The notes beneath the pieces are model-generated. The model was not told where the DNA came from. It saw nothing but the letters and a program-made list of their open reading frames with translations, and ran no database searches. From Phototrophicaceae bacterium (GTDB lineage: Bacteria; Chloroflexota; Anaerolineae; Aggregatilineales; Phototrophicaceae): a stretch of 64,000 bases of DNA. The translations under genes and the position numbers were made by a program. The stretch is taken from NCBI GenBank assembly GCA_965207905.1, contig OZ242316.1, positions 4,163,848-4,227,847 on the forward strand, written 5' to 3'. The stretch's first letter is position 1; each line of letters starts with the position of its first letter. Positions 24,673-42,078 of this stretch are shown one piece after another.

Positions 24673-24760
24673 TTATCTCCTATTTTCGACATAATGCGAC
24701 AATACTGGCACAGTCCAGGATCGTATTCAAGGTTTGCGAATAATCGGCATGTATGAAGGT

Positions 24761-24792
24761 TTTTTACCACAGAGACACAGAGACACAGAGAA
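24761..24792. repeat. CACAGAG-family repeat, left-end type (TTTTTACCACAGAGACACAGAGACACAGAGAA)
   Basis: 24773-24792 is the exact reverse complement of 25201-25220. 24761-24774 is the exact reverse complement of 26737-26750. Confidence 0.9.
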
Positions 24793-24815
24793 TTGAGGGG
24801 AGTTCGCTTCAAGAA

Positions 24816-25196
24816 ATGAGCCCAACTGATACACGTGACCCATTAACATACAGAATTATCGGCGCCGCCATAGAAGTACATCAGATCTTGGGAGCAGGAC
24901 TACTTGAAAACATTTATGAGGACGCGCTGTGTATCGAATTGGCAGAGCGCGGGCTCAGTTTCGAGCGTCAGAAACACCTTGAAATCAATTACAAGGGCCA
25001 TGATATTGGTGATCTTTTTGTAGATATCATTGTCGAGGATCGAGTGATCGTAGAATTGAAGTCGGTAAGAGAACTGGCGCCGATCCATAAGGCTCAGTTG
25101 ATGACATACCTTCGTGTGTCGAACATGGGGTTGGGGCTGCTGATCAATTTCAATGTTCCAAACTTGACGCAAGGAATACAGAGAGTTGTGCTTTGA
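24816..25196 (+). CDS. GxxExxY protein (PD-(D/E)XK nuclease superfamily)
   Basis: The ORF track starts at 24753 inside the repeat (HRDTETQR). The likely start is MSPTDTRDPLTYRIIGAAIEVHQILGAGLLENIYEDAL; the GxxExxY motif is GLLENIY, followed by VELKSV. Confidence 0.85.
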   Translation: MSPTDTRDPLTYRIIGAAIEVHQILGAGLLENIYEDALCIELAERGLSFERQKHLEINYKGHDIGDLFVDIIVEDRVIVELKSVRELAPIHKAQLMTYLRVSNMGLGLLINFNVPNLTQGIQRVVL

Positions 25197-25200
25197 GCAT

Positions 25201-25238
25201 TTCTCTGTGTCTCTGTGTCTACTTTCACAACCCCTCAA
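25201..25238. repeat. CACAGAG-family repeat, inverted copy (TTCTCTGTGTCTCTGTGTCT ... CCCCTCAA)
   Basis: It forms a perfect 20-bp inverted repeat with 24773-24792. CCCCTCAA (25231-25238) is complementary to TTGAGGGG (24793-24800). Confidence 0.9.
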
Positions 25239-25447: not shown

Positions 25448-26677
25448 ATGGTACAACCTACGAAACATAACCGCGTTCGCATCTCGCAAGGCGATTTCGC
25501 TGTAGCGGGTCGCTATGATTGCACAGCAGGTTGCGATGTAGACGCAGACTATGTCGTTGTCTCGCTTTTGAACTTCAAATCACAGACAAACGAAATTCGG
25601 CAAATACCTCAGACTCAGGCAAAAGCGAATGCAGCTGCAAAGTGGCTCAAACAGAACAAAGTAGAGTTCATAGTTCTAGAATCGACCGCAAATTATCATT
25701 TGACTTTTTATCACGCTTGCCGAAAACTTGGTCTGAATGTACACATCATCAATCCCGCTCAAGTCACGGCGCTACTTCGAATAGAGGGCAAGTCGGATAA
25801 GGCGGATGCGACAAATCTAGCCATGCTAGCCGCTACTTTTCCCCTAAGAACTTCCAATGTTCCAGATGCCCAACAAATAGAGATTCGTAGCAACTTGCGG
25901 AATTATGACCGCGACAGAAAAGCATTAACTAAAGTTAAGCAACGGGTTCATCAAGAACTTGCGCAGTTTGGAATAAATATCTTCCGGGAAACTACGTTGA
26001 GAACCCAATCAGGCCGGGCGTTTCTGGAAGCGCTTTCTCAGACAGAGGACGCGGCGGAAATGATTGTTCAGAATCACTGGAAAGGTTCACCTAGCAGCCG
26101 CCCAAGATTGATAGAGGCAATGGGGAAGACGGAAGAACTCCCAACTTGGCTTCGTCAGGAACTTGAAGTGCTAAGAATTGACCTACTTGTTCAAGAGCAA
26201 AGAATTAGAAACCGAGAACAACAAGCGCTAAATCATATCGAACATTTTGAGCTAGCGCCTCAGATCGCTTGGATGTCCACGACACCAGGAGTAAACTGGC
26301 TCGTAGCTTTACGACTAATTGGTGAAATGGGATCGGACTTTTGGCAACGATATTCAACATCAAGAGCCTGGTGTAAGGCTTTAGGGGTCGCCCCGAACAC
26401 TCTTGTTTCTGCCGGGAAAGTCCTTAAAACCTCGAAAGCCTTAGGAAATAATCATGCCAAGCGACATCTCCTCATGCAAATGCGTAATTGGTTATTGCGA
26501 AACCATGAGCACCCATTGAAACAGTGGCAAGTACAATATAGAGCTAAAGCAGGCTTTCGCAAATCAGTATCCGCGTGCTGCAATAAAGCCATGACCAGTT
26601 TATATCATCAAGGCCGGCACGGCGGTTTACCGTATAATCCGAGTCGGATGAAGTTACGATTCCCTGAAACTATCTAG
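25448..26677 (+). CDS. IS110 family transposase (DEDD recombinase)
   Basis: 409 aa. VEFIVLESTANYHLTFYHACRKLGLNVHIINPAQV...KSDKADATNLA is the typical N-terminal DEDD_Tnp_IS110 region. The C-terminal Transposase_20-like region includes PGVNWLVALRLIGEMG. Confidence 0.9.
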   Translation: MVQPTKHNRVRISQGDFAVAGRYDCTAGCDVDADYVVVSLLNFKSQTNEIRQIPQTQAKANAAAKWLKQNKVEFIVLESTANYHLTFYHACRKLGLNVHIINPAQVTALLRIEGKSDKADATNLAMLAATFPLRTSNVPDAQQIEIRSNLRNYDRDRKALTKVKQRVHQELAQFGINIFRETTLRTQSGRAFLEALSQTEDAAEMIVQNHWKGSPSSRPRLIEAMGKTEELPTWLRQELEVLRIDLLVQEQRIRNREQQALNHIEHFELAPQIAWMSTTPGVNWLVALRLIGEMGSDFWQRYSTSRAWCKALGVAPNTLVSAGKVLKTSKALGNNHAKRHLLMQMRNWLLRNHEHPLKQWQVQYRAKAGFRKSVSACCNKAMTSLYHQGRHGGLPYNPSRMKLRFPETI

Positions 26678-34782: not shown

Positions 34783-34857
34783 TTTCACCACAGAGGGCGG
34801 AGGTCACGGAGGTTTTTTCACCACAAAGGGCACAAAGACACGAAGGTCACAAAGGGG
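34783..34857. repeat. CACAGAG-family repeat cluster, left-end orientation
   Basis: tttcaccacagagggcggaggtcacggagg is followed by ttttttcaccacaaagggcacaaagacacgaaggtcacaaag. 34813-34829 is an inverted repeat of 36623-36639 (16/17). Confidence 0.85.
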
Positions 34858-34896
34858 GTCGGCGGGGGGAACGATGCAGAAATCGACTAACCTTTT

Positions 34897-35871
34897 TTAC
34901 TGCATAGCGCGTTCTTTCCAGCGAACCGGCCCTAACTCTATCGGCAATGCACGAACAATTTCGTACAAACCGTCAAGATCATGCTGGATATCTTTCCAGA
35001 CGTACGGCTTAAGTAGGGCCGGTATCTCGGCCGATTCGGAAAACTTAAGCGCAATGATGGCGAACTTTTCTCCATACTCTCTCTTACGGCTCTTAGCATA
35101 GTTGATCTCGTCAGCCAAGATTCGTTCGTCTTTGAAGTCTTCTGTGATGAAGAAAACGACGGCACAACTTTCAGAGATTCCCCCGAAAATCCCTCTGTCG
35201 AGTTCCATTCCAGCATACATAGCGGGATCATCTAGCCACGGGTCGAAGCCCAATTGTTTGAGAACTTTGTGATATTTCTTTACTAGTTGTTTGTTTTCGG
35301 ATTTGTGACTTAGGAATATCCTTGTTTCATTCGTAGCCGGAATTCTTTCGATGGGAACAGCCTGCAATTCACGCGCTTCTTGAGATGGCATACCGATCGC
35401 TGCCTCCATTCTATCTCCCAAACTTAGGCAGAACGGCCTCACGACCAGCGAAAGAAAAAGTGACTTGCTTCCATCCATATCGCTCCAACGTGTGCGGCGA
35501 TCCTGCAAGTCTATGAAGTTCTGATCATGTTGGTTTGCATAGCCGTGGAGCAACTGGTATTGGAAGCTAAACTCTTCGTCCGGGTCGTCGGGAAATATCC
35601 AGATGCTACCGGTCTCCTTATCGAGTTTATCGTATTCGCTGTTCAGCCACGTTGTGAATCGGGCGGGTCCAGCATTTCTCATCAGAGGCGCTATAACTGA
35701 TTGCGCGACAGGATCTCGCTCCAAGAAGTTCAGCAGCGGGTGAAAATGATGGTCGAACTGCTCTATATCCTCGTTTATCAGTGCGTCTCGTCGCCTTTTG
35801 AATTGTCGTAACGTGTTGATCTGGGCGTCTCGTGTTATTTCGCTCACTTGGTGTACCTCATAGCAATACAT
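34897..35871 (-). CDS. TIR-domain protein with an uncharacterised N-terminal domain
   Basis: 324 aa. Residues ~183-305 (nt 34957-35325) read RIFLSHKSENKQLVKKYHKVLKQLGFDPWLDDPAMYAGMELDRGIFGGISESCAVVFFITEDFKDERILADEINYA, a bacterial TIR_2-like pattern. I recognise no motif in the N-terminal 180 aa. Confidence 0.75.
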   Translation of the reverse strand: MYCYEVHQVSEITRDAQINTLRQFKRRRDALINEDIEQFDHHFHPLLNFLERDPVAQSVIAPLMRNAGPARFTTWLNSEYDKLDKETGSIWIFPDDPDEEFSFQYQLLHGYANQHDQNFIDLQDRRTRWSDMDGSKSLFLSLVVRPFCLSLGDRMEAAIGMPSQEARELQAVPIERIPATNETRIFLSHKSENKQLVKKYHKVLKQLGFDPWLDDPAMYAGMELDRGIFGGISESCAVVFFITEDFKDERILADEINYAKSRKREYGEKFAIIALKFSESAEIPALLKPYVWKDIQHDLDGLYEIVRALPIELGPVRWKERAMQ

Positions 35872-36415
35872 TCTTTCTTGCGCAATATGGACAGTAGATC
35901 AAATCTAGCCAGCACGAAATGATTTTTATCGTCTCAGCACAGCACAGGAGTCGCACGACTTGCATATCGGGAAGCTCAGGTCCAGCTATCGGTTGCACCG
36001 AGATGGGCGATGATTCATGCGTAATCCGGATGAAGTCGTTTCTCCCGAATGAATTTGAAAGTCCATCAAACATGTTTCGAATTGACGGTTCTATGATGTG
36101 CCGAAACATCCACCTGTGCATGTATTCAGTAAACTCATCAGTATGCATATCTTGCTGAGCATCTGTATGTCCACAATAAGGACATGTCAATTCATCAAGT
36201 GTGTCTTCATTAACGTCTGAAGTTGATGAGACTAACGAATTTCCAGTGGTCTCGGCAAATATGGGTGCAAGCAACGTAGATAATTGTGATGGTTCGGTCA
36301 CGAGCTTGAAATGGAGTCCGCACGAGGCGCAGCCGCGTCGCATGTAACGGTCGCCGTCGAGCGAATACTCAATCTGAAATGTCCTAATGTCTGAATCGTG
36401 TTCGGACTCATTCAT
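35858..36415 (-). CDS. Hypothetical zinc-ribbon protein (Cys-knuckle pairs), partner of the TIR protein
   Basis: 185 aa with CASC (aa ~29-32), CPYC (aa ~78-81), CC (aa ~160) and a terminal CPYC. It overlaps the TIR gene by 14 nt. Confidence 0.6.
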   Translation of the reverse strand: MNESEHDSDIRTFQIEYSLDGDRYMRRGCASCGLHFKLVTEPSQLSTLLAPIFAETTGNSLVSSTSDVNEDTLDELTCPYCGHTDAQQDMHTDEFTEYMHRWMFRHIIEPSIRNMFDGLSNSFGRNDFIRITHESSPISVQPIAGPELPDMQVVRLLCCAETIKIISCWLDLIYCPYCARKNVLL

Positions 36416-36604
36416 ATCGCGTGGTAGCTCGGATACCTCATCGGACGTAGTAGGTCTTGAGAACGGGCAAATGCTATACTATCGACGCCATTATATCAAT
36501 AGAATAATAGTAACTGTTACAACACTGCAGTGGGCGAATTGGGTAAATTGATGACCATGTACTCTGGCCTGCATTCGGGCAACCCGCTGGCCCATCCAGA
36601 CACT

Positions 36605-36689
36605 TTCTTTGTGCCCTTTGTGCCTTTGTGGTCAAAAAAACCAATCCCCTAACTCGGTGCCCTCGGTGTACTCGGTGGTAAAGAAAAAA
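36605..36689. repeat. CACAGAG-family repeat cluster, right-end orientation (two units ending GTGGTCAAAAAAA and GTGGTAAAGAAAAAA)
   Basis: ttctttgtgccctttgtgcctttgtggtcaaaaaaa ... ctcggtgccctcggtgtactcggtggtaaagaaaaaac. Confidence 0.85.
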
Positions 36690-36725: not shown

Positions 36726-36748
36726 CAGCCCAAGTGGAGGACCGACCC

Positions 36749-37024
36749 ATGACCATCGATATCGCGGAAGACGTCGCGCTGCGCCTTGAAGCGCTCGCAA
36801 AAGCAAAAGACGCCGACATCAGCGACTTGCTGCGCGACATGATCGAGAGCTACGAGGACAAGGGCGACGCCAAACAGAAGCGCTGGGCGACAGGTGCGGA
36901 CTTTGCCAGAAACGCCAAAGCCGCAGGGCTGGCATCGCCCGAGCCGGTGGATACTTCAGCGCGCAGCCGCGAGATTCTTAGCACAGAGTTCGCAGACTAC
37001 TTGATACGCCGCGCCAACCGATGA
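36749..37024 (+). CDS. Ribbon-helix-helix (CopG/VapB-like) antitoxin
   Basis: The ORF track starts at 36734; ATG 36749 follows GGAGGA. MTIDIAEDVALRLEALAKAKDADISDLLRDMIE has the RHH pattern. It overlaps the PIN gene by 4 nt. Confidence 0.75.
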   Translation: MTIDIAEDVALRLEALAKAKDADISDLLRDMIESYEDKGDAKQKRWATGADFARNAKAAGLASPEPVDTSARSREILSTEFADYLIRRANR

Positions 37025-37434
37025 CCTTCATCGCGGACAGCAACTTTGTCTATGCGCTGTACAACGCCAATGATATCCATCATCAAGACGGGATGAGTTT
37101 GCTGTCTCAAAACTCGGAAGTTATGCTCGTGCCTGATGTGGTCCTGCCAGAAGTCGGTTATCTCATTGCGCGCGACATTGGCCACAGCGGAATGCCAACT
37201 TTCCTAGAGCACTTTATGCAGTTAGATGTTCGGCTTGAAGCGGTTGGCATGGAAGACTTGGCAAGAGTTCGCGATATTGTAAGCACCTATGCGGACGCCC
37301 GATTCGACATCGTAGACTGCTGTATCATGGCTATCGCTGAACGCCTGAACATCACGAGAGTCGCGACTTTCGACCGGCGTGACTTTAATATATTTCGCCC
37401 GCGCCACTGCGATTATCTTGAATTGTTGCCCTAG
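37021..37434 (+). CDS. vapC: PIN-domain toxin VapC
   Basis: 137 aa with FIADSNFVYAL...VLPEVGYL...DIVDCCIMAIAERLNITRVATFDRRDF. Confidence 0.85.
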   Translation: MTFIADSNFVYALYNANDIHHQDGMSLLSQNSEVMLVPDVVLPEVGYLIARDIGHSGMPTFLEHFMQLDVRLEAVGMEDLARVRDIVSTYADARFDIVDCCIMAIAERLNITRVATFDRRDFNIFRPRHCDYLELLP

Positions 37435-37447
37435 CTTCGCCTCTACG

Positions 37448-37571
37448 TTTCTTTGTGCCTTCGTGCCTTCGTGCCTTTGTGATCCAAAACATACCCTCTG
37501 TGCCCTCTCATTAACTCTGTGCCCTCGGTGGCAAAAGAAAAACACCTCTGTGTCTCTGTGCCTCTGTGGCC
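37448..37571. repeat. CACAGAG-family repeat cluster, right-end orientation (3-4 units)
   Basis: tttctttgtgccttcgtgccttcgtgcctttgtgatcc ... ctctgtgccctcggtggcaaaagaaaaa ... cctctgtgtctctgtgcctctgtggcc. Confidence 0.85.
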
Positions 37572-39029: not shown

Positions 39030-40151
39030 GTGACTGATATCTTGCAGAAGAAAATCCAAGGCTGCCTCTACGGTGGCGCAATCGGCGATGCCATGGGCGC
39101 GCCGGCTGAATGGCGCATGCCTGATGAGATTCGGGCGCGCTACGGCTATATCACCGACCTGGTCGAAGCCTGGGACGATGCCGATACGCGCGGGCGCGGT
39201 CACGGTCGTTACACCGACGACACGCACATGGTGCAGCTGCTCTGCGAGTGTTACCTCGAGCGCGGCGACCACCTGGACGCCCACGAATTCTTCCGCCGCA
39301 TCGTGCCCAAGATAGCGCTGGAAGATCGCTGGATCCCTGAGCGCGGCCGCGAGATGCCACTGGTTGAGCGGCTCTTCTATCCCGAGAAGTGGCTCTACAA
39401 TCGCTGGCTGGCCAATGCTGATCCGCGCATCGCCGGCGTCGGCAATATGGTCAACTGCGGCGCCGCCATGTACGCCGCGCCGGTCGGCATCGTCAACGCC
39501 TGCGATCCCGCGCGCGCCTACGCCGAAGCGGTCGATGTCTTCAGCGCCCACCAATACAGCTTCGGGCTGGAAGCGGCTGCCGTCATGGCCGCCTGCGTGG
39601 CCGAAGCCTTCAAGCCCGACGCCTCGGTCGCGTCGATCATCGACGCCGCGCTCACCGTCGCCAAAGAGGGCACCGCCGATTGCATCGCCGCCATCGCCGA
39701 TAAAGCCAGCACGCTGACCGACTGGCGCAGCGCCATCGCTCCCCTGCGCGATGTCATGCGCGAATACGACACCTCGCCCGATGACGCCAAGTCGCAGCGC
39801 GGCAACGGCAGCAACGACTGGACGCCCAGCCGCTCGCACAGCATTGAAGAGGTGCCCATCGCGCTCGGCTTCCTGGTGGTCACCGGCGGCGACTTCGAAG
39901 GCACGATCATGGGCGGGACTAACTACGGCCGCGATAACGACTCCATCGCCGGCATGGGCGGGGCCATCGCCGGGGCGCTGCACGGCATCGACACTCTGCG
40001 CGCCGACTGGGTCGAGCAGATCAATTCCGCCAACCGCATCGACTTGATGCCGCTCGCCGCCGACATGGCCGATCTGACGCGCGCGCTGCAGGCTGAGCAG
40101 CTGGCGTCTGCGCAGGCTCGGCGGGAGGCGTTTGCGGAGTTGGGCGGCTAA
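39030..40151 (+). CDS. ADP-ribosylglycohydrolase family protein
   Basis: 373 aa with a GTG start. The N-terminal GCLYGGAIGDAMGAPAEW and C-terminal DNDSIAGMGGAIAGALHG motifs are typical of the family. Confidence 0.85.
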   Translation: MTDILQKKIQGCLYGGAIGDAMGAPAEWRMPDEIRARYGYITDLVEAWDDADTRGRGHGRYTDDTHMVQLLCECYLERGDHLDAHEFFRRIVPKIALEDRWIPERGREMPLVERLFYPEKWLYNRWLANADPRIAGVGNMVNCGAAMYAAPVGIVNACDPARAYAEAVDVFSAHQYSFGLEAAAVMAACVAEAFKPDASVASIIDAALTVAKEGTADCIAAIADKASTLTDWRSAIAPLRDVMREYDTSPDDAKSQRGNGSNDWTPSRSHSIEEVPIALGFLVVTGGDFEGTIMGGTNYGRDNDSIAGMGGAIAGALHGIDTLRADWVEQINSANRIDLMPLAADMADLTRALQAEQLASAQARREAFAELGG

Positions 40152-40152
40152 C

Positions 40153-40181
40153 TCACCACAGAGGCACGAAGGGCATCGAGG
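40153..40181. repeat. CACAGAG-family repeat, left-end orientation (TCACCACAGAGGCACGAAGG...)
   Basis: It starts 2 nt after the ARH stop. tcaccacagag is the reverse complement of ctctgtggtga at 42528-42538. Confidence 0.8.
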
Positions 40182-40400: not shown

Positions 40401-41558
40401 TCAGGTCGTATAGACGACAATTTTGAAGTCTTTGGGATCAACAAGTTGCCAGATTGAACCTTTCATCTGTAACATTCCAGTTACTGAAACGGTCTCCCAT
40501 TTCATATGCGCCCTATCTGCCTCAAAATAGTCATGCTTGTTAAGACGCATGCTTACCTTTCGACTGCGCTTTCTGCCAACAGTCCAATCAACAATAATCG
40601 CCCGGTCCTCCACAGTCTCGCTCAACGGGTCACCTGACGAGCTTAAGGCGATCACTCGGCCCTTGATCGTAACTCTTTGCTGAGGAACGAATCTGAGATA
40701 TTCTATGGCACTTTCTAGATACTTGAGGTGTTCACGCCCAAGACGAACGCGGTCAAAGTCTCTAACATCTGATGATGGCGGAAGCGTCTGAGACCAAGTG
40801 ATTGATAGTTCGTAAGGCGAGCTCAAGATGTAAATCATGTCACGAATTGCTTCGCACATTCTGGAATTGAATCCTTGCCCGTATTCCTTCTTCAGAAGCT
40901 CTTCATCCCGACCACTGAGTGCCTTAGCAGTGGCCTGCAGTCCGCGCGCGATCCTCTCTAACACACGACGTTCTAATGGTAGAATCCGAAAGTCCTCCCC
41001 GGGCAATTGATGTTGCTCGCGCTTGCTAATGTAACGCTTCTCTTGCCCCACAAGAGATTCAATCAATAGGCCGAAACTCCCCTCAAAAGTCTGGCCAAAC
41101 CGGAAGTGCTGTATCATTTTCGAACCAGTCGATAGCGGTTGCTTGAAATGGGCTTTGGCGTTACGCTCGGAACTCGCGGAATACTGAATAAGTTTCTTCA
41201 CATACCTCACATACTTCGAAGCTACATCATAAGGCAATGACGCATTGCTAGCGTTCTCCATAATGCGAACACGAAGTAAGTCACGGTCATGATAGCGGAT
41301 ATCGTTCGCAGTTGATTCCATTGTCTTGCGCTGTAGGGAAGAAAGTATCCTTATGGCGTGCTGAACATGCACGCGATAGTCTTCTTCTACGACATCTTTT
41401 GGCAATGCGATTTCAAAGTGCTTGCCCGACTTGCTCATTCGACCGTGAAAGACACGCCAACGCTCATTGTCAACTACGCGTTTCCAGCCATTCACCTCTA
41501 GGTAGGATGTCATGCGAGGAATCGCAAGATCCAGTTCCGCGATTTCTTTGTCAACCAT
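40401..41558 (-). CDS. Hypothetical 385-aa protein (possible HEPN-like RNAKAH motif), partner of the DUF4365-like gene
   Basis: No family recognised. A single Rx4H motif sits in SSERNAKAHF (nt 41148-41165). It overlaps the upstream gene by 8 nt (ATGGTTGA). Confidence 0.6.
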   Translation of the reverse strand: MVDKEIAELDLAIPRMTSYLEVNGWKRVVDNERWRVFHGRMSKSGKHFEIALPKDVVEEDYRVHVQHAIRILSSLQRKTMESTANDIRYHDRDLLRVRIMENASNASLPYDVASKYVRYVKKLIQYSASSERNAKAHFKQPLSTGSKMIQHFRFGQTFEGSFGLLIESLVGQEKRYISKREQHQLPGEDFRILPLERRVLERIARGLQATAKALSGRDEELLKKEYGQGFNSRMCEAIRDMIYILSSPYELSITWSQTLPPSSDVRDFDRVRLGREHLKYLESAIEYLRFVPQQRVTIKGRVIALSSSGDPLSETVEDRAIIVDWTVGRKRSRKVSMRLNKHDYFEADRAHMKWETVSVTGMLQMKGSIWQLVDPKDFKIVVYTT

Positions 41559-42078
41559 TAGGTCTGTACTCCGCCGCTTCCTCGAGTATCTGGTTCACAG
41601 CTGCTTGGTCGAAGACATTGCTTATTGGTATGCATACGCGTTTCGTCTCCTTGTTTGGAGATTTTGCTCCCAGGAGGCGGGCCCAATAGCAGCAGTTTCT
41701 AAGACACATGCAATCTCTACTAATCAGCAACCACTCTTTCTGGTCCTTTGGCATCGCAAACAGTACAAAAGCAACATAAGAACGCTTCGGATGTACCAAC
41801 TTGTTATAGGCATCTACTTTCATATCAAACTTTACGTGTGTTGGATTCTCCGCGTTTGGATAGAAAATGCAATCGGTTGATGCCTTCAGTTGGCATCGAA
41901 CGGGAGGGCCCGAGTCAGTAAAGGTCCCATTGTCATCCATGATTGCGCTTAGTGTGACATCTGTCCCATAGTCACTCGTGCCATCTATCTGCGATAATGT
42001 GGCTCCCGCTTGCGCAACAACGGCTCGGACATACGATAACTGTAGGTCTTGCATGATGTGTGTAAGTGGTCTGGGCAT
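41551..42078 (-). CDS. DUF4365-like restriction-endonuclease-fold (PD-(D/E)xK) protein
   Basis: 175 aa. LQLSYVRAVVAQAGATLSQIDGTSDYGTDVTLSAI...PVRCQLKAST matches my recollection of the DUF4365 pattern (D-Y-G-x-D ... Q-x-K). Not verified by HMM. Confidence 0.5.
   Translation of the reverse strand: MPRPLTHIMQDLQLSYVRAVVAQAGATLSQIDGTSDYGTDVTLSAIMDDNGTFTDSGPPVRCQLKASTDCIFYPNAENPTHVKFDMKVDAYNKLVHPKRSYVAFVLFAMPKDQKEWLLISRDCMCLRNCCYWARLLGAKSPNKETKRVCIPISNVFDQAAVNQILEEAAEYRPNG

Follow-up and report, generated by a model that had tools for sequence, protein, structure and literature searches.

The 64-kb stretch of DNA analyzed here (the window) carries on its minus strand two adjacent, co-oriented genes: gene A, which comes first and encodes a zinc-ribbon protein, and gene B, which encodes an adaptor-TIR protein (Table 1). 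Both open reading frames were found exactly as a sequence-only reading of this DNA had placed them, at 35858-36415 (185 aa) and 34897-35871 (324 aa). On the other hand, the 14-nt overlap described in that reading depends on the in-frame ATG at 35871, which is a doubtful start. The 316-aa form of gene B is present in public gene calls, from which the 324-aa form is absent, and the closer homologues start at the position of GTG 35847, indicating that this GTG is probably the start codon. The two genes would then be 10 nt apart, without overlap and still tightly coupled. A Shine-Dalgarno-like GAGG overlaps the gene A stop codon, suggesting translational coupling of the two genes. The TATAAT hexamer previously pointed out upstream of gene A is present, but promoter-like matches are at chance level (2 found against 2.7 expected from shuffled sequence).

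Table 1. Features of the two-gene cassette and its surroundings (positions in the window)
Feature	Position	Strand	Description
Gene A	35858..36415	-	ORF, 185 aa; double zinc-ribbon, long form of PDC-M14A
Gene B	34897..35847	-	ORF, adaptor-TIR; 316 aa from the probable GTG 35847, 324 aa if from ATG 35871
N-terminal all-alpha adaptor domain of gene B	35338..35847	-	About 170 aa, 8 helices; conserved motif FPDDPDEEFSFQYQLL
TIR domain of gene B	34948..35322	-	aa 184-308 in the 324-aa numbering; Pfam TIR_2, Foldseek
Candidate catalytic Glu codon	35107..35109	-	E255 in the 324-aa numbering, E247 in the 316-aa numbering
GAGG, Shine-Dalgarno-like	35856..35859	-	Read from the sequence; 8 nt before GTG 35847
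TATAAT, possible -10 box	36490..36495	-	75 nt upstream of gene A
Left repeat copy	34813..34856	-	Dispersed tandem-octamer element; GCACAAAG-type units and a T-run
Right repeat copy	36604..36640	+	Same tandem-octamer element, inverted relative to the left copy
VapB-like gene	36734-37024	+	96-aa ORF; in the low-GC islet shared with the cassette
VapC PIN toxin gene	37021-37434	+	PIN domain, E=6.6e-10; start overlaps the upstream 96-aa ORF

The cassette is AT-richer than its flanks, as had been judged by eye: GC content is 44-50% over 34800-36600 compared with 60-68% in the surrounding core genes (below 34600 and above 37600), and the adjoining VapBC stretch is intermediate (51-57%). The neighbouring VapBC module was also recognized correctly, VapC having a PIN domain, and the low-GC locus is a variable hot spot. 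In related genomes this hot spot contains homologous VapBC pairs, and its TIR proteins are only 44-47% identical compared with 74-88% for the flanking genes. VapBC shares the low-GC islet with the cassette, yet is outside the two-gene system. The core genes immediately neighbouring the islet are of BNR/Sortilin type and ThiS-like.

The inverted repeats that were thought to bound the cassette do exist, matching at 16 of 17 positions and extending to 33 nt at 76%, but they are not specific to it. They are one pair from a dispersed octamer family with the core CTNYGTG every 8 nt, which has 11 matches at seven sites within the window against 0.01 expected; such repeats are also found on either side of VapBC and of an unrelated small gene (24.7-25.2 kb). 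This dispersal ruled out the repeats as transposon or cassette ends.

The cysteine knuckles of gene A were assessed in alignments of 12, 29 and 90 sequences. C29, C32, C78 and C81 make up zinc-ribbon site 1, and C158, C159, C175 and C178 site 2; seven of the eight are invariant and C158 is present in at least 90% of sequences, which supports the knuckles proposed from the single sequence. The linker between the two sites, PIxGPExPDM, is also conserved. The AlphaFold2 model (pLDDT 77.9) shows two beta-hairpin ribbon units together with helices 42-57 and 93-122. Foldseek searches of this model against PDB and BFVD gave no significant neighbour (best E values of 5 and 1), and the fold thus gave no basis for assigning a function. 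The product is acidic (pI 4.8). It matched the PADLOC profile PDC-M14A with E=1.1e-21 and 75.8 bits in two stretches, the better of which aligns aa 64-180 with profile positions 32-149 of 152; for comparison, canonical members reach E values of 3e-27 and 2e-20 on the same profile. In public data this zinc-ribbon family amounts to about 1,600 clusters when grouped at 50% identity.

The TIR pattern reported for the C-terminal region of gene B was confirmed by Pfam, where TIR_2 matched aa 185-297 with E=4.4e-13 and 50 bits against a cut-off of 28. In the AlphaFold2 model of gene B (pLDDT 83.5) the TIR domain matched many TIR structures with a Foldseek probability of 1.0 and superposed on those of SPARTA TIR-APAZ, Cat1, SARM1 and AbTir with an rmsd of 2.1-2.3 Å over about 133 residues, the tightest superpositions being with SPARTA (2.1-2.3 Å). 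The domain contains the FLSHK motif and is followed by a conserved C-terminal tail, LDGLYEIVRALPxxxGPxxW. E255, already singled out as the candidate catalytic Glu, is invariant in 121 of 121 homologues, and in a phmmer alignment it falls on the Glu of the W..xE motif in PDB TIR chains (7uxr, Cat1), which we take to be catalytic. The active-site pattern and the structural neighbours together predict a TIR of the NAD-cleaving type.

The N-terminal domain of gene B, described earlier as an unknown domain of 180 aa, turned out to be homologous to the N-terminal half of PDC-M14B. Comparison with canonical PDC-M14B partners by hhalign gave a probability of 96.5% and E=8.9e-10 over 129 columns, and an HMM built from the domain matched canonical B proteins at 4e-21, 7e-12 and 2e-7. 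The match of gene B to the PADLOC PDC-M14B profile was weak (E=0.006 and 0.012) and limited to positions 13-134 of the 267 in the profile. In the AlphaFold2 model the helices of the domain lie within residues 14-168. A relationship to the ARM repeats of SARM1/TIR-1 was considered and rejected, the Foldseek alignment being meaningless (rmsd 15-24 Å). Full-length homologues of gene B number more than 420 and are about 305-320 aa long.

Since gene A matches PDC-M14A and the N-domain of gene B is homologous to PDC-M14B, the cassette is, by sequence homology, a TIR-carrying variant of the catalogued defence candidate PDC-M14. The view that it is an undescribed TIR defence system holds in so far as it fits no validated TIR system, but is too strong for gene A and the N-domain of gene B, which belong to a family already catalogued. 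PDC-M14 is a computational phage-defence candidate of Payne et al. 2024 (bioRxiv 10.1101/2024.01.29.577857), whose cassette table gives it as FAM_02625>>FAM_00494 with the number 247; we read this number in the table as homologous cassettes in a RefSeq v209 search. Payne et al. also pair FAM_02625 with FAM_00644, in 14 instances, and FAM_00644 may correspond to the adaptor-TIR family. A full-text search for the name PDC-M14 gave no paper and no validation was found in the literature, and PDC systems are termed unvalidated in a 2025 preprint.

Canonical PDC-M14 and the present cassette both consist of two co-oriented, tightly coupled genes tied to defence loci, with a first gene of the same double zinc-ribbon family (E=1e-21) and a second gene homologous over its N-terminal 150 aa or so, including the motif LPxDxxEExSFxYQLL. 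They differ in the length of gene A, 185 aa here (the long form) compared with about 150 aa in the canonical protein, owing to an insertion of about 35 aa, a helix plus linker, between the halves of ribbon 1. They also differ at the end of gene B, which is a TIR domain here and a tail of about 120 aa without a Pfam domain in canonical PDC-M14B. The PDC-M14B profile consequently does not extend over most of gene B, the TIR replacing the C-terminal half, and the locus would probably be missed by PADLOC v2.0.0, judging from the E-value and coverage thresholds that this program usually applies.

A profile search of genome contigs with an alignment of the TIR protein yielded the loci used for comparison, whereas a zinc-ribbon alignment gave no confirmed loci in the same kind of search. 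The gene pair proved to be syntenic elsewhere, a zinc-ribbon gene directly preceding the adaptor-TIR gene at 24 of the 25 assessable genome loci, which belong to Chloroflexota, Acidobacteriota, Thermodesulfobacteriota, Bacteroidota, Armatimonadota, Patescibacteria, Myxococcota and Omnitrophota. The pair thus spans at least eight phyla, with a patchy phyletic distribution, and metagenome loci L003-L006 and L084 share the arrangement. Searches of phage, plasmid and IMG/VR collections detected no homologue of the complete pair: tblastn gave no match of the zinc-ribbon in plasmids or of the TIR protein in phages, the TIR protein matched plasmids in the TIR domain only, and alignment A2 gave just three matches in viral contigs, all confined to the TIR domain. 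Mobility of the cassette is therefore deduced solely from GC content and hot-spot turnover.

Several rearrangements connect the parts of the two proteins. The zinc-ribbon is fused directly to a TIR of the gene B subfamily in L036, L040, L058, P0250, P0252, P0357 and P0268, and to a PDC-M14B-like N-domain in P0278 (433 aa), P0332 and P0360. In the zinc-ribbon-TIR fusions the N-domain is missing, so that this domain is not indispensable for coupling. The zinc-ribbon family is also paired with PDC-M14B proteins that have no TIR (L081, the B. cereus plasmid pAH820_272 and a Lysinibacillus plasmid) and stands beside a CAP12/Pycsar-type TIR on an Arthrobacter plasmid. Distances between zinc-ribbons and between N-domains are correlated (Mantel r=0.87, p=2e-4), shared phylogeny being a partial confounder. 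The zinc-ribbon and the N-domain have mean divergences of 0.59 and 0.56, compared with 0.32 for the TIR domain, a pattern that, at the sequence level, fits a fast-evolving sensor and a conserved effector.

The pair was also found near defence genes in other genomes. Of the ten largest flanking genes that were tested (nine immediately upstream in the same orientation, one downstream), eight are known defence genes: DISARM DrmD (L016 and L024), a SIR2-APAZ-pAgo fusion (L007), a DrmMI/type IIG methyltransferase (L009), a type III REase (L027), type IIG RM (L019 and L022) and an OLD/Gabija-like ATPase (L031). In the window, the cassette has VapBC and a complete PDC-M02 candidate no more than 6 kb away. 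In agreement with what had been noted for this locus, neither ThsA, SAVED, Argonaute, reverse transcriptase nor cyclase is conserved as a partner of the pair. No ThsA-type effector (SIR2-SLOG, Macro/TM) was present among the neighbours of 21 loci, considering the best 25 of 340 PADLOC families, or among those window genes that were compared with Pfam, and no cyclase was seen among the window genes checked, the PADLOC matches considered being those of the top 25 families.

Taken together, these results favour, with a probability of about 0.6, a two-gene abortive-infection-type anti-phage module of the PDC-M14 family. The zinc-ribbon protein would dock on the N-domain of gene B to form a quiescent sensor-effector complex; this docking is proposed because of the fusions and the co-divergence alone. 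A phage-derived cue, more likely a protein than a nucleic acid because both proteins are acidic, would then release or oligomerize the TIR domains. Once assembled, these could make composite active sites and hydrolyze NAD+, and the loss of NAD+ would starve the infected cell and stop phage replication. No dedicated downstream effector is encoded, and for this reason the TIR is taken as the effector itself. The C-terminus of gene B would be an exchangeable effector slot, occupied by a TIR here and by the different tail of about 120 aa in canonical PDC-M14B.

In such a design the cassette would resemble SPARTA, in which a TIR effector is likewise tethered via a non-catalytic adaptor to a sensor subunit from the adjacent gene, and the proposed passage from a quiescent heterodimer through trigger-induced oligomerization to NAD+ depletion is also shared. 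The sensor, however, would be a 185-aa zinc-ribbon protein instead of an Argonaute, the adaptor is all-alpha and N-terminal to the TIR whereas APAZ is C-terminal to it, and there is no sign here of guide or target nucleic-acid binding, both proteins being acidic. The TIR-APAZ profile Aga_TIR-PNTD covered the TIR part only (aa 183-296, positions 4-118 of 430), and gene B has neither an APAZ fused to its TIR nor a short pAgo as partner, that partner being the zinc-ribbon. Likewise, the SAVED-TIR profile matched in the TIR part only (positions 12-105 of 404), and the SAVED or cNMP-binding sensor with a cyclase that marks CBASS/Pycsar TIR effectors is missing from the pair. The TIR-I to TIR-IX systems of E. 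coli are similarly small TIR-centred operons; both of their genes are needed, the TIR catalytic residues are essential, the outcome is abortive infection and the triggers are diverse phage proteins (2024, PMC11350192). Compared by description, their partners are TM, AAA, TPR and DUF4238 proteins with no zinc-ribbon among them (PMC11350192). Single-protein TIR NADases such as SpbK are also close in kind.

Four other explanations were weighed. The first, which we consider unlikely, is a toxin-antitoxin or addiction pair in which the TIR is a constitutively toxic NADase and the zinc-ribbon a labile antitoxin, so that the pair stabilizes the islet instead of sensing phage. The layout is typical, a small protein first and an enzyme second in tight coupling, a VapBC module adjoins the cassette, and the gene fusions show that both parts interact. 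However, intact and catalytically complete adaptor-TIR genes without a zinc-ribbon gene occur at L001/L002 and L029, in the same hot spot of related genomes, and tblastn detected no zinc-ribbon remnant at these loci. An essential antitoxin could not be lost without lethality, and the survival of these orphans thus argues that the zinc-ribbon is not one; a type II toxin cannot persist without its cognate antitoxin gene, whereas the gene content at these loci indirectly suggests that the adaptor-TIR gene can. Single-chain zinc-ribbon-TIR fusions are common and hard to square with a degradable antitoxin, and the embedding of the pair in DISARM and restriction-modification operons points to defence. 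The orphan genes also weigh against the preferred sensor-effector reading, as they may mean that TIR proteins of this family act alone.

Equally doubtful is a Thoeris-like mechanism, in which the TIR would make a cyclic-ADPR-type or related messenger read by an effector encoded elsewhere or by the zinc-ribbon. Many bacterial TIRs are signal generators, as known from Thoeris, and some produce signalling nucleotides instead of depleting NAD+. Thoeris also shares with the cassette a TIR_2-type domain with a catalytic Glu (a candidate here) in a small defence operon. Gene B has weak matches to ThsB (best E=6.3e-6, 23.8 bits, PADLOC) and to NCBIfam ThcB4 of Thoeris type III (E=6e-5, 22 bits against a cut-off of 220), but these are far below cut-off and do not place it in the ThsB family. 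Across 21 genomes the pair has no conserved neighbour of the ThsA, SLOG, Macro, SIR2 or transmembrane effector kind, and the sole constant partner is a zinc-ribbon protein without a recognizable effector or nucleotide-binding fold. In addition, the closest structural matches are the TIRs of SPARTA, Cat1 and SARM1, which are effector-type and NAD-consuming; the TIR here is accordingly the presumed effector, whereas ThsB generates a signal.

Still less probable is a substrate other than free NAD+ for the TIR, which might, for instance, act on nucleic acids by cleavage or modification, or ADP-ribosylate a target, with specificity coming from the zinc-ribbon/N-domain module. Some plant TIRs have 2',3'-cNMP synthetase or nuclease-like activities, and an ADP-ribosylglycohydrolase gene (39030-40151) lies 2.6 kb from the cassette. 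This gene was rejected as a part of the system because it is in high-GC core DNA and because the gene calls next to the TIR gene at the corresponding locus L001 do not include it. The acidity of both proteins disfavours nucleic-acid binding, and the active-site pattern is that of NADase TIRs.

Finally, a conserved regulatory or housekeeping pair hitch-hiking in variable regions is highly improbable: the defence role proposed here comes from sequence and context and the immediate neighbours in the window are core genes, but the distribution is patchy, the cassette has a GC content 15% below its flanks, its hot-spot TIR proteins diverge far more than the flanking genes, the pair recurs among DISARM, restriction-modification, pAgo and OLD genes, and the effector is predicted to be of the TIR NADase type.

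A further proposal can be made tentatively, at somewhat less than even odds: the zinc-ribbon may be a phage-sensing module of a new kind that stands alone and can be connected to killing domains that are interchangeable, the TIR version killing by NAD+ depletion. The wiring would take three routes, a dedicated helical adaptor, direct fusion or simple adjacency, and the killing domains would comprise two unrelated TIR lineages and a non-enzymatic tail. If true, the logic of this sensor platform would be comparable to that of Avs, CapRel and pAgo-APAZ.

Because two-gene TIR abortive-infection systems are already numerous, the cassette opens no long-standing question. If the pair protects against phage, on the other hand, it would provide the first functional handle on the PDC-M14 family, with its roughly 1,600 zinc-ribbon clusters, and the second gene of PDC-M14 would be an adaptor with a swappable effector. 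Control of a TIR NADase by a small double zinc-ribbon protein with a novel fold would also be new. The split pair, the zinc-ribbon-TIR fusion, the zinc-ribbon-adaptor fusion and the orphan TIR would then form a natural series for the study of sensor-effector coupling.

Both open reading frames described by the sequence-only reading are present, and the TIR domain that it assigned to gene B, the adaptor-TIR gene, is genuine, matching Pfam TIR_2 over aa 185-297 (E=4.4e-13; 50 bits, cut-off 28). An AlphaFold2 model of the gene B product, made with 121 homologues (mean pLDDT 83.5), showed an all-alpha N-terminal domain (N-domain), whose eight helices occupy aa 14-168, and behind it a flavodoxin-like TIR fold. 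In Foldseek searches the TIR part matched SPARTA TIR-APAZ (rmsd 2.1-2.3 A, about 133 residues) and also Cat1, SARM1/TIR-1, MyD88 and AbTir. The glutamate proposed as catalytic, E255 in the 324-aa numbering, is invariant across 121 sequences, and phmmer against PDB TIR chains (7uxr, Cat1) aligned it to the Glu of the W..xE motif, which we take to be the catalytic residue. The TIR domain has all the features expected of an NADase; a rival reading is a TIR acting on a non-NAD substrate. The proposed 14-nt overlap of the two genes rests on an ATG that is probably unused. The likelier start is GTG 35847, which has GAGG 8 nt upstream, overlapping the stop codon of gene A, and lies at the position where closer homologues begin; public gene calls contain the resulting 316-aa product but not the 324-aa form. 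With this start the genes are 10 nt apart, and their tight coupling holds.

The cysteine knuckles noted in gene A, which encodes the zinc-ribbon protein, fall into two sets (C29/C32/C78/C81 and C158/C159/C175/C178). C158 is conserved in at least 90% of sequences, and every other one of these cysteines is invariant, across alignments of 12, 29 and 90 sequences. Neither the PDB nor predicted viral proteomes yielded a structural neighbour of the protein. An exhaustive profile search (E<=1e-3) placed it in a family of 1,589 clusters at 50% identity, whose members are either about 150 or about 180-200 aa long, apart from some longer fusions.

The pair is syntenic elsewhere, as the sequence-only reading would have it. 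Full-length relatives of the TIR protein number more than 420, with lengths of about 305-320 aa and identities of about 45%. In a scan of one genome per species, 27 loci carried the complete N-domain-plus-TIR architecture, and by an ORF profile search 23 of these have a zinc-ribbon gene as the next gene upstream, in the same orientation; in a 24th its final 16 codons are visible at the contig edge, one (L029, a Phototrophicaceae MAG) has no such gene, and two are too short for its presence to be judged. The hosts belong to Chloroflexota, Acidobacteriota, Thermodesulfobacteriota, Bacteroidota (Balneolaceae), Armatimonadota, Patescibacteria, Myxococcota and Omnitrophota. Metagenome loci hold the same pair, for example L003, where the zinc-ribbon protein is 37% identical (E=1e-42) and its gene lies 13 nt upstream of the TIR gene. 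No other gene conserved with the pair was found. Genes A and B are co-inherited. The distance matrices of the zinc-ribbon and the N-domain are correlated (r=0.87, Mantel p=2e-4), and by mean distance the zinc-ribbon (0.59) and the N-domain (0.56) diverge at about double the rate of the TIR domain (0.32).

That the zinc-ribbon, N-domain and TIR parts act as one unit is shown by fusions, which come in two configurations. The zinc-ribbon is fused directly to the gene B TIR subfamily in L036, L040, L058, P0250, P0252, P0268, P0357 and others, and to the N-domain or a B-type protein in P0278 (433 aa), P0332 and P0360. The first three direct fusions, which are single chains, share a conserved additional C-terminal domain of about 100 aa (...PRTVAKWxGGLEDLRRRRFIKDxGHKGEVFEVTxEGYDAADQL) that has no significant Pfam match and could be placed in no family. 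On the Arthrobacter plasmid pNtRootA2-1 (L086) the gene of a CAP12/Pycsar-type TIR protein (PF10137, E=9e-27) immediately precedes a PDC-M14A-family zinc-ribbon ORF, the reverse of the PDC-M14 order; this ORF is missing from the plasmid gene table.

The claim that the system is undescribed was only partly upheld. Gene A matches PADLOC PDC-M14A (E=1.1e-21) and the N-domain, which had been considered unknown, gives a weak match to PDC-M14B (E=0.006) that covers profile positions 13-134 of 267. Payne et al. arrived at 145 'phage defence candidates' by guilt-by-embedding; PDC-M14 is among them, listed as cassette FAM_02625>>FAM_00494 with the figure 247, which we read as the count from their search of RefSeq v209 for homologues. 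Another pairing, FAM_02625>>FAM_00644, had 14 instances and fell under the cut-off. PDC systems are termed unvalidated in a 2025 preprint, and a full-text literature search found no mention of PDC-M14 by name. Canonical pairs occur at L081 (153-aa A, E=3e-27; 306-aa B, E=6e-17, no Pfam domain found) and, with lengths of about 150 aa for A and about 270 aa for B, on the B. cereus plasmid pAH820_272 and one Lysinibacillus plasmid. Comparison of the N-domain with the N-half of canonical B proteins gave an hhalign probability of 96.5% (E=8.9e-10, 129 columns), its HMM matched these proteins at 4e-21, 7e-12 and 2e-7, and both share a motif (FPDDPDEEFSFQYQLL in the window gene B, IPIDNNEEISFIYQLL in the Bacillus protein); the two are genuinely homologous. 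PDC-M14 is the closest relative, sharing gene A and the gene order, but the C-terminal half of gene B does not fit the PDC-M14B profile, so the cassette is a variant rather than a member in the PADLOC sense.

As the earlier reading held, the cassette lies outside the known TIR layouts. SPARTA is nearest in logic, with an adaptor-tethered TIR NADase and a separately encoded sensor, but APAZ and Argonaute are both absent here. The defining features of CBASS/Pycsar effectors and retron-TIR are likewise lacking, as are those of Thoeris; Thoeris-like signalling is a further rival.

The cassette is AT-richer than its surroundings, as had been judged by eye (GC 44-50% versus 60-68% in the core genes flanking the islet), and the adjoining VapBC module was borne out: a 137-aa ORF is a PIN-domain VapC (E=6.6e-10) whose start overlaps a VapB-like ORF of 96 aa. 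Two BNR/Sortilin-type genes enclose the locus. In related Chloroflexota (L001/L002 and L029) the flanking genes are 74-88% identical to those of the window, and the TIR proteins at the same site are 44-47% identical to the window's and to each other. These genomes carry an intact adaptor-TIR gene at this hot spot, where no zinc-ribbon gene or remnant was found; VapBC content varies among them, and in L001 the site also contains an IS3 element, a RelE-type pair and a VapB remnant.

The inverted repeat said to bound the cassette exists (16/17, extendable to 33 nt at 76%) and belongs to a dispersed family rather than to the cassette. This tandem-octamer family, with the core CTNYGTG every 8 nt (for example CTTTGTGCCTTTGTG or CTCTGTGTCTCTGTG), gave 11 matches in the window against 0.01 expected, and its copies also lie on both sides of VapBC and of a small, unrelated gene (24.7-25.2 kb). 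Copies border accessory modules, often in inverted pairs; one such pair brackets a 147-aa ORF, which may resemble GxxExxY / PD-(D/E)XK-like small proteins, which is followed by a transposase-like ORF. ORF translations suggest similar repeats around the TIR genes of L001 and L029, and members of the family may mark places where small cassettes recombine or insert. The TATAAT upstream of gene A is present, with promoter-like sites no commoner than in shuffled sequence.

Features of the window and of homologous loci
Feature	Sequence	Position	Strand
Gene A, 185 aa	window	35858-36415	-
Gene B, 324-aa form	window	34897-35871	-
TATAAT	window	36495-36490	
Octamer repeat	window	24768-24790	
Octamer repeat	window	25203-25217	
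Octamer repeat	window	34831-34845	
Octamer repeat	window	36616-36630	
Octamer repeat	window	37451-37481	
Octamer repeat	window	37546-37568	
Octamer repeat	window	40157-40171	
147-aa ORF	window	24753-25196	+
Transposase-like ORF, 409 aa	window	25448-26677	+
ADP-ribosylglycohydrolase gene	window	39030-40151	+
Second low-GC islet, PDC-M02	window	40401-42078	-
Adaptor-TIR gene	L001/L002	6001-6966	
Adaptor-TIR gene	L029	4914-5858	
Zinc-ribbon-TIR fusion	L036	4401-5765	
Zinc-ribbon-TIR fusion	L040	4554-5732	
Zinc-ribbon-TIR fusion	L058	4584-5762	
Pair with AbiTii and second TIR	L084	2415-6517	
TIR and zinc-ribbon ORF	L086	3094-4450	

A role outside defence has to be weighed against the neighbourhoods of the pair. 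Among the ten largest flanking genes that were tested, nine sit directly upstream in the orientation of the pair and one sits downstream in the opposite orientation; eight of the ten are known defence genes: DISARM DrmD (L016, L024), a SIR2-APAZ-pAgo fusion (L007), a DrmMI/type IIG methyltransferase (L009), a type III restriction enzyme (L027), type IIG RM (L019, L022) and an OLD/Gabija-like ATPase (L031). A pooled scan of 125 neighbours agrees with this picture. On the metagenome contig L084 the pair adjoins an AbiTii-domain gene and a second, unrelated TIR/bSEFIR-like protein. In the window itself, a second low-GC islet (about 47-49% GC) holds a complete PADLOC candidate, PDC-M02: a 385-aa protein matches PDC-M02B (E=1.5e-85), and one other gene of the pooled scan matches PDC-M02A (E=3.7e-41), presumably that of the adjoining 175-aa DUF4365 protein (Pfam E=5.5e-17). 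PDC-M02, VapBC and the TIR cassette form a small stretch rich in defence genes. Three window proteins also match PDC-S03 (PADLOC; best E=1.7e-16, pooled scan of the genes at 18-52 kb). An ADP-ribosylglycohydrolase gene (Pfam E=1.8e-43) 2.6 kb from the cassette draws attention by its position near a predicted ADPR-producing enzyme; since it lies in high-GC DNA and is not among the genes called at L001, the corresponding locus, it is probably unrelated.

We propose that the zinc-ribbon protein would bind the helical N-domain of gene B in a quiescent complex, and that a phage cue would lead to TIR-TIR assembly, NAD+ hydrolysis and abortive infection. Because both proteins are acidic (gene A pI 4.8; family median 5.3), a protein seems more likely than nucleic acid as the trigger. 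A TA-type addiction module, with the zinc-ribbon protein as labile antitoxin, is opposed by the intact orphan TIR genes and by the stable zinc-ribbon-TIR fusions. The cassette is real and intact, and its link to defence is almost certain. The best description is a variant, carrying a TIR effector, of PDC-M14, a candidate family already catalogued, in which the C-terminal half of gene B may be an exchangeable effector slot. The cassette does not amount to a system of a categorically new kind, and it is worth experimental follow-up.
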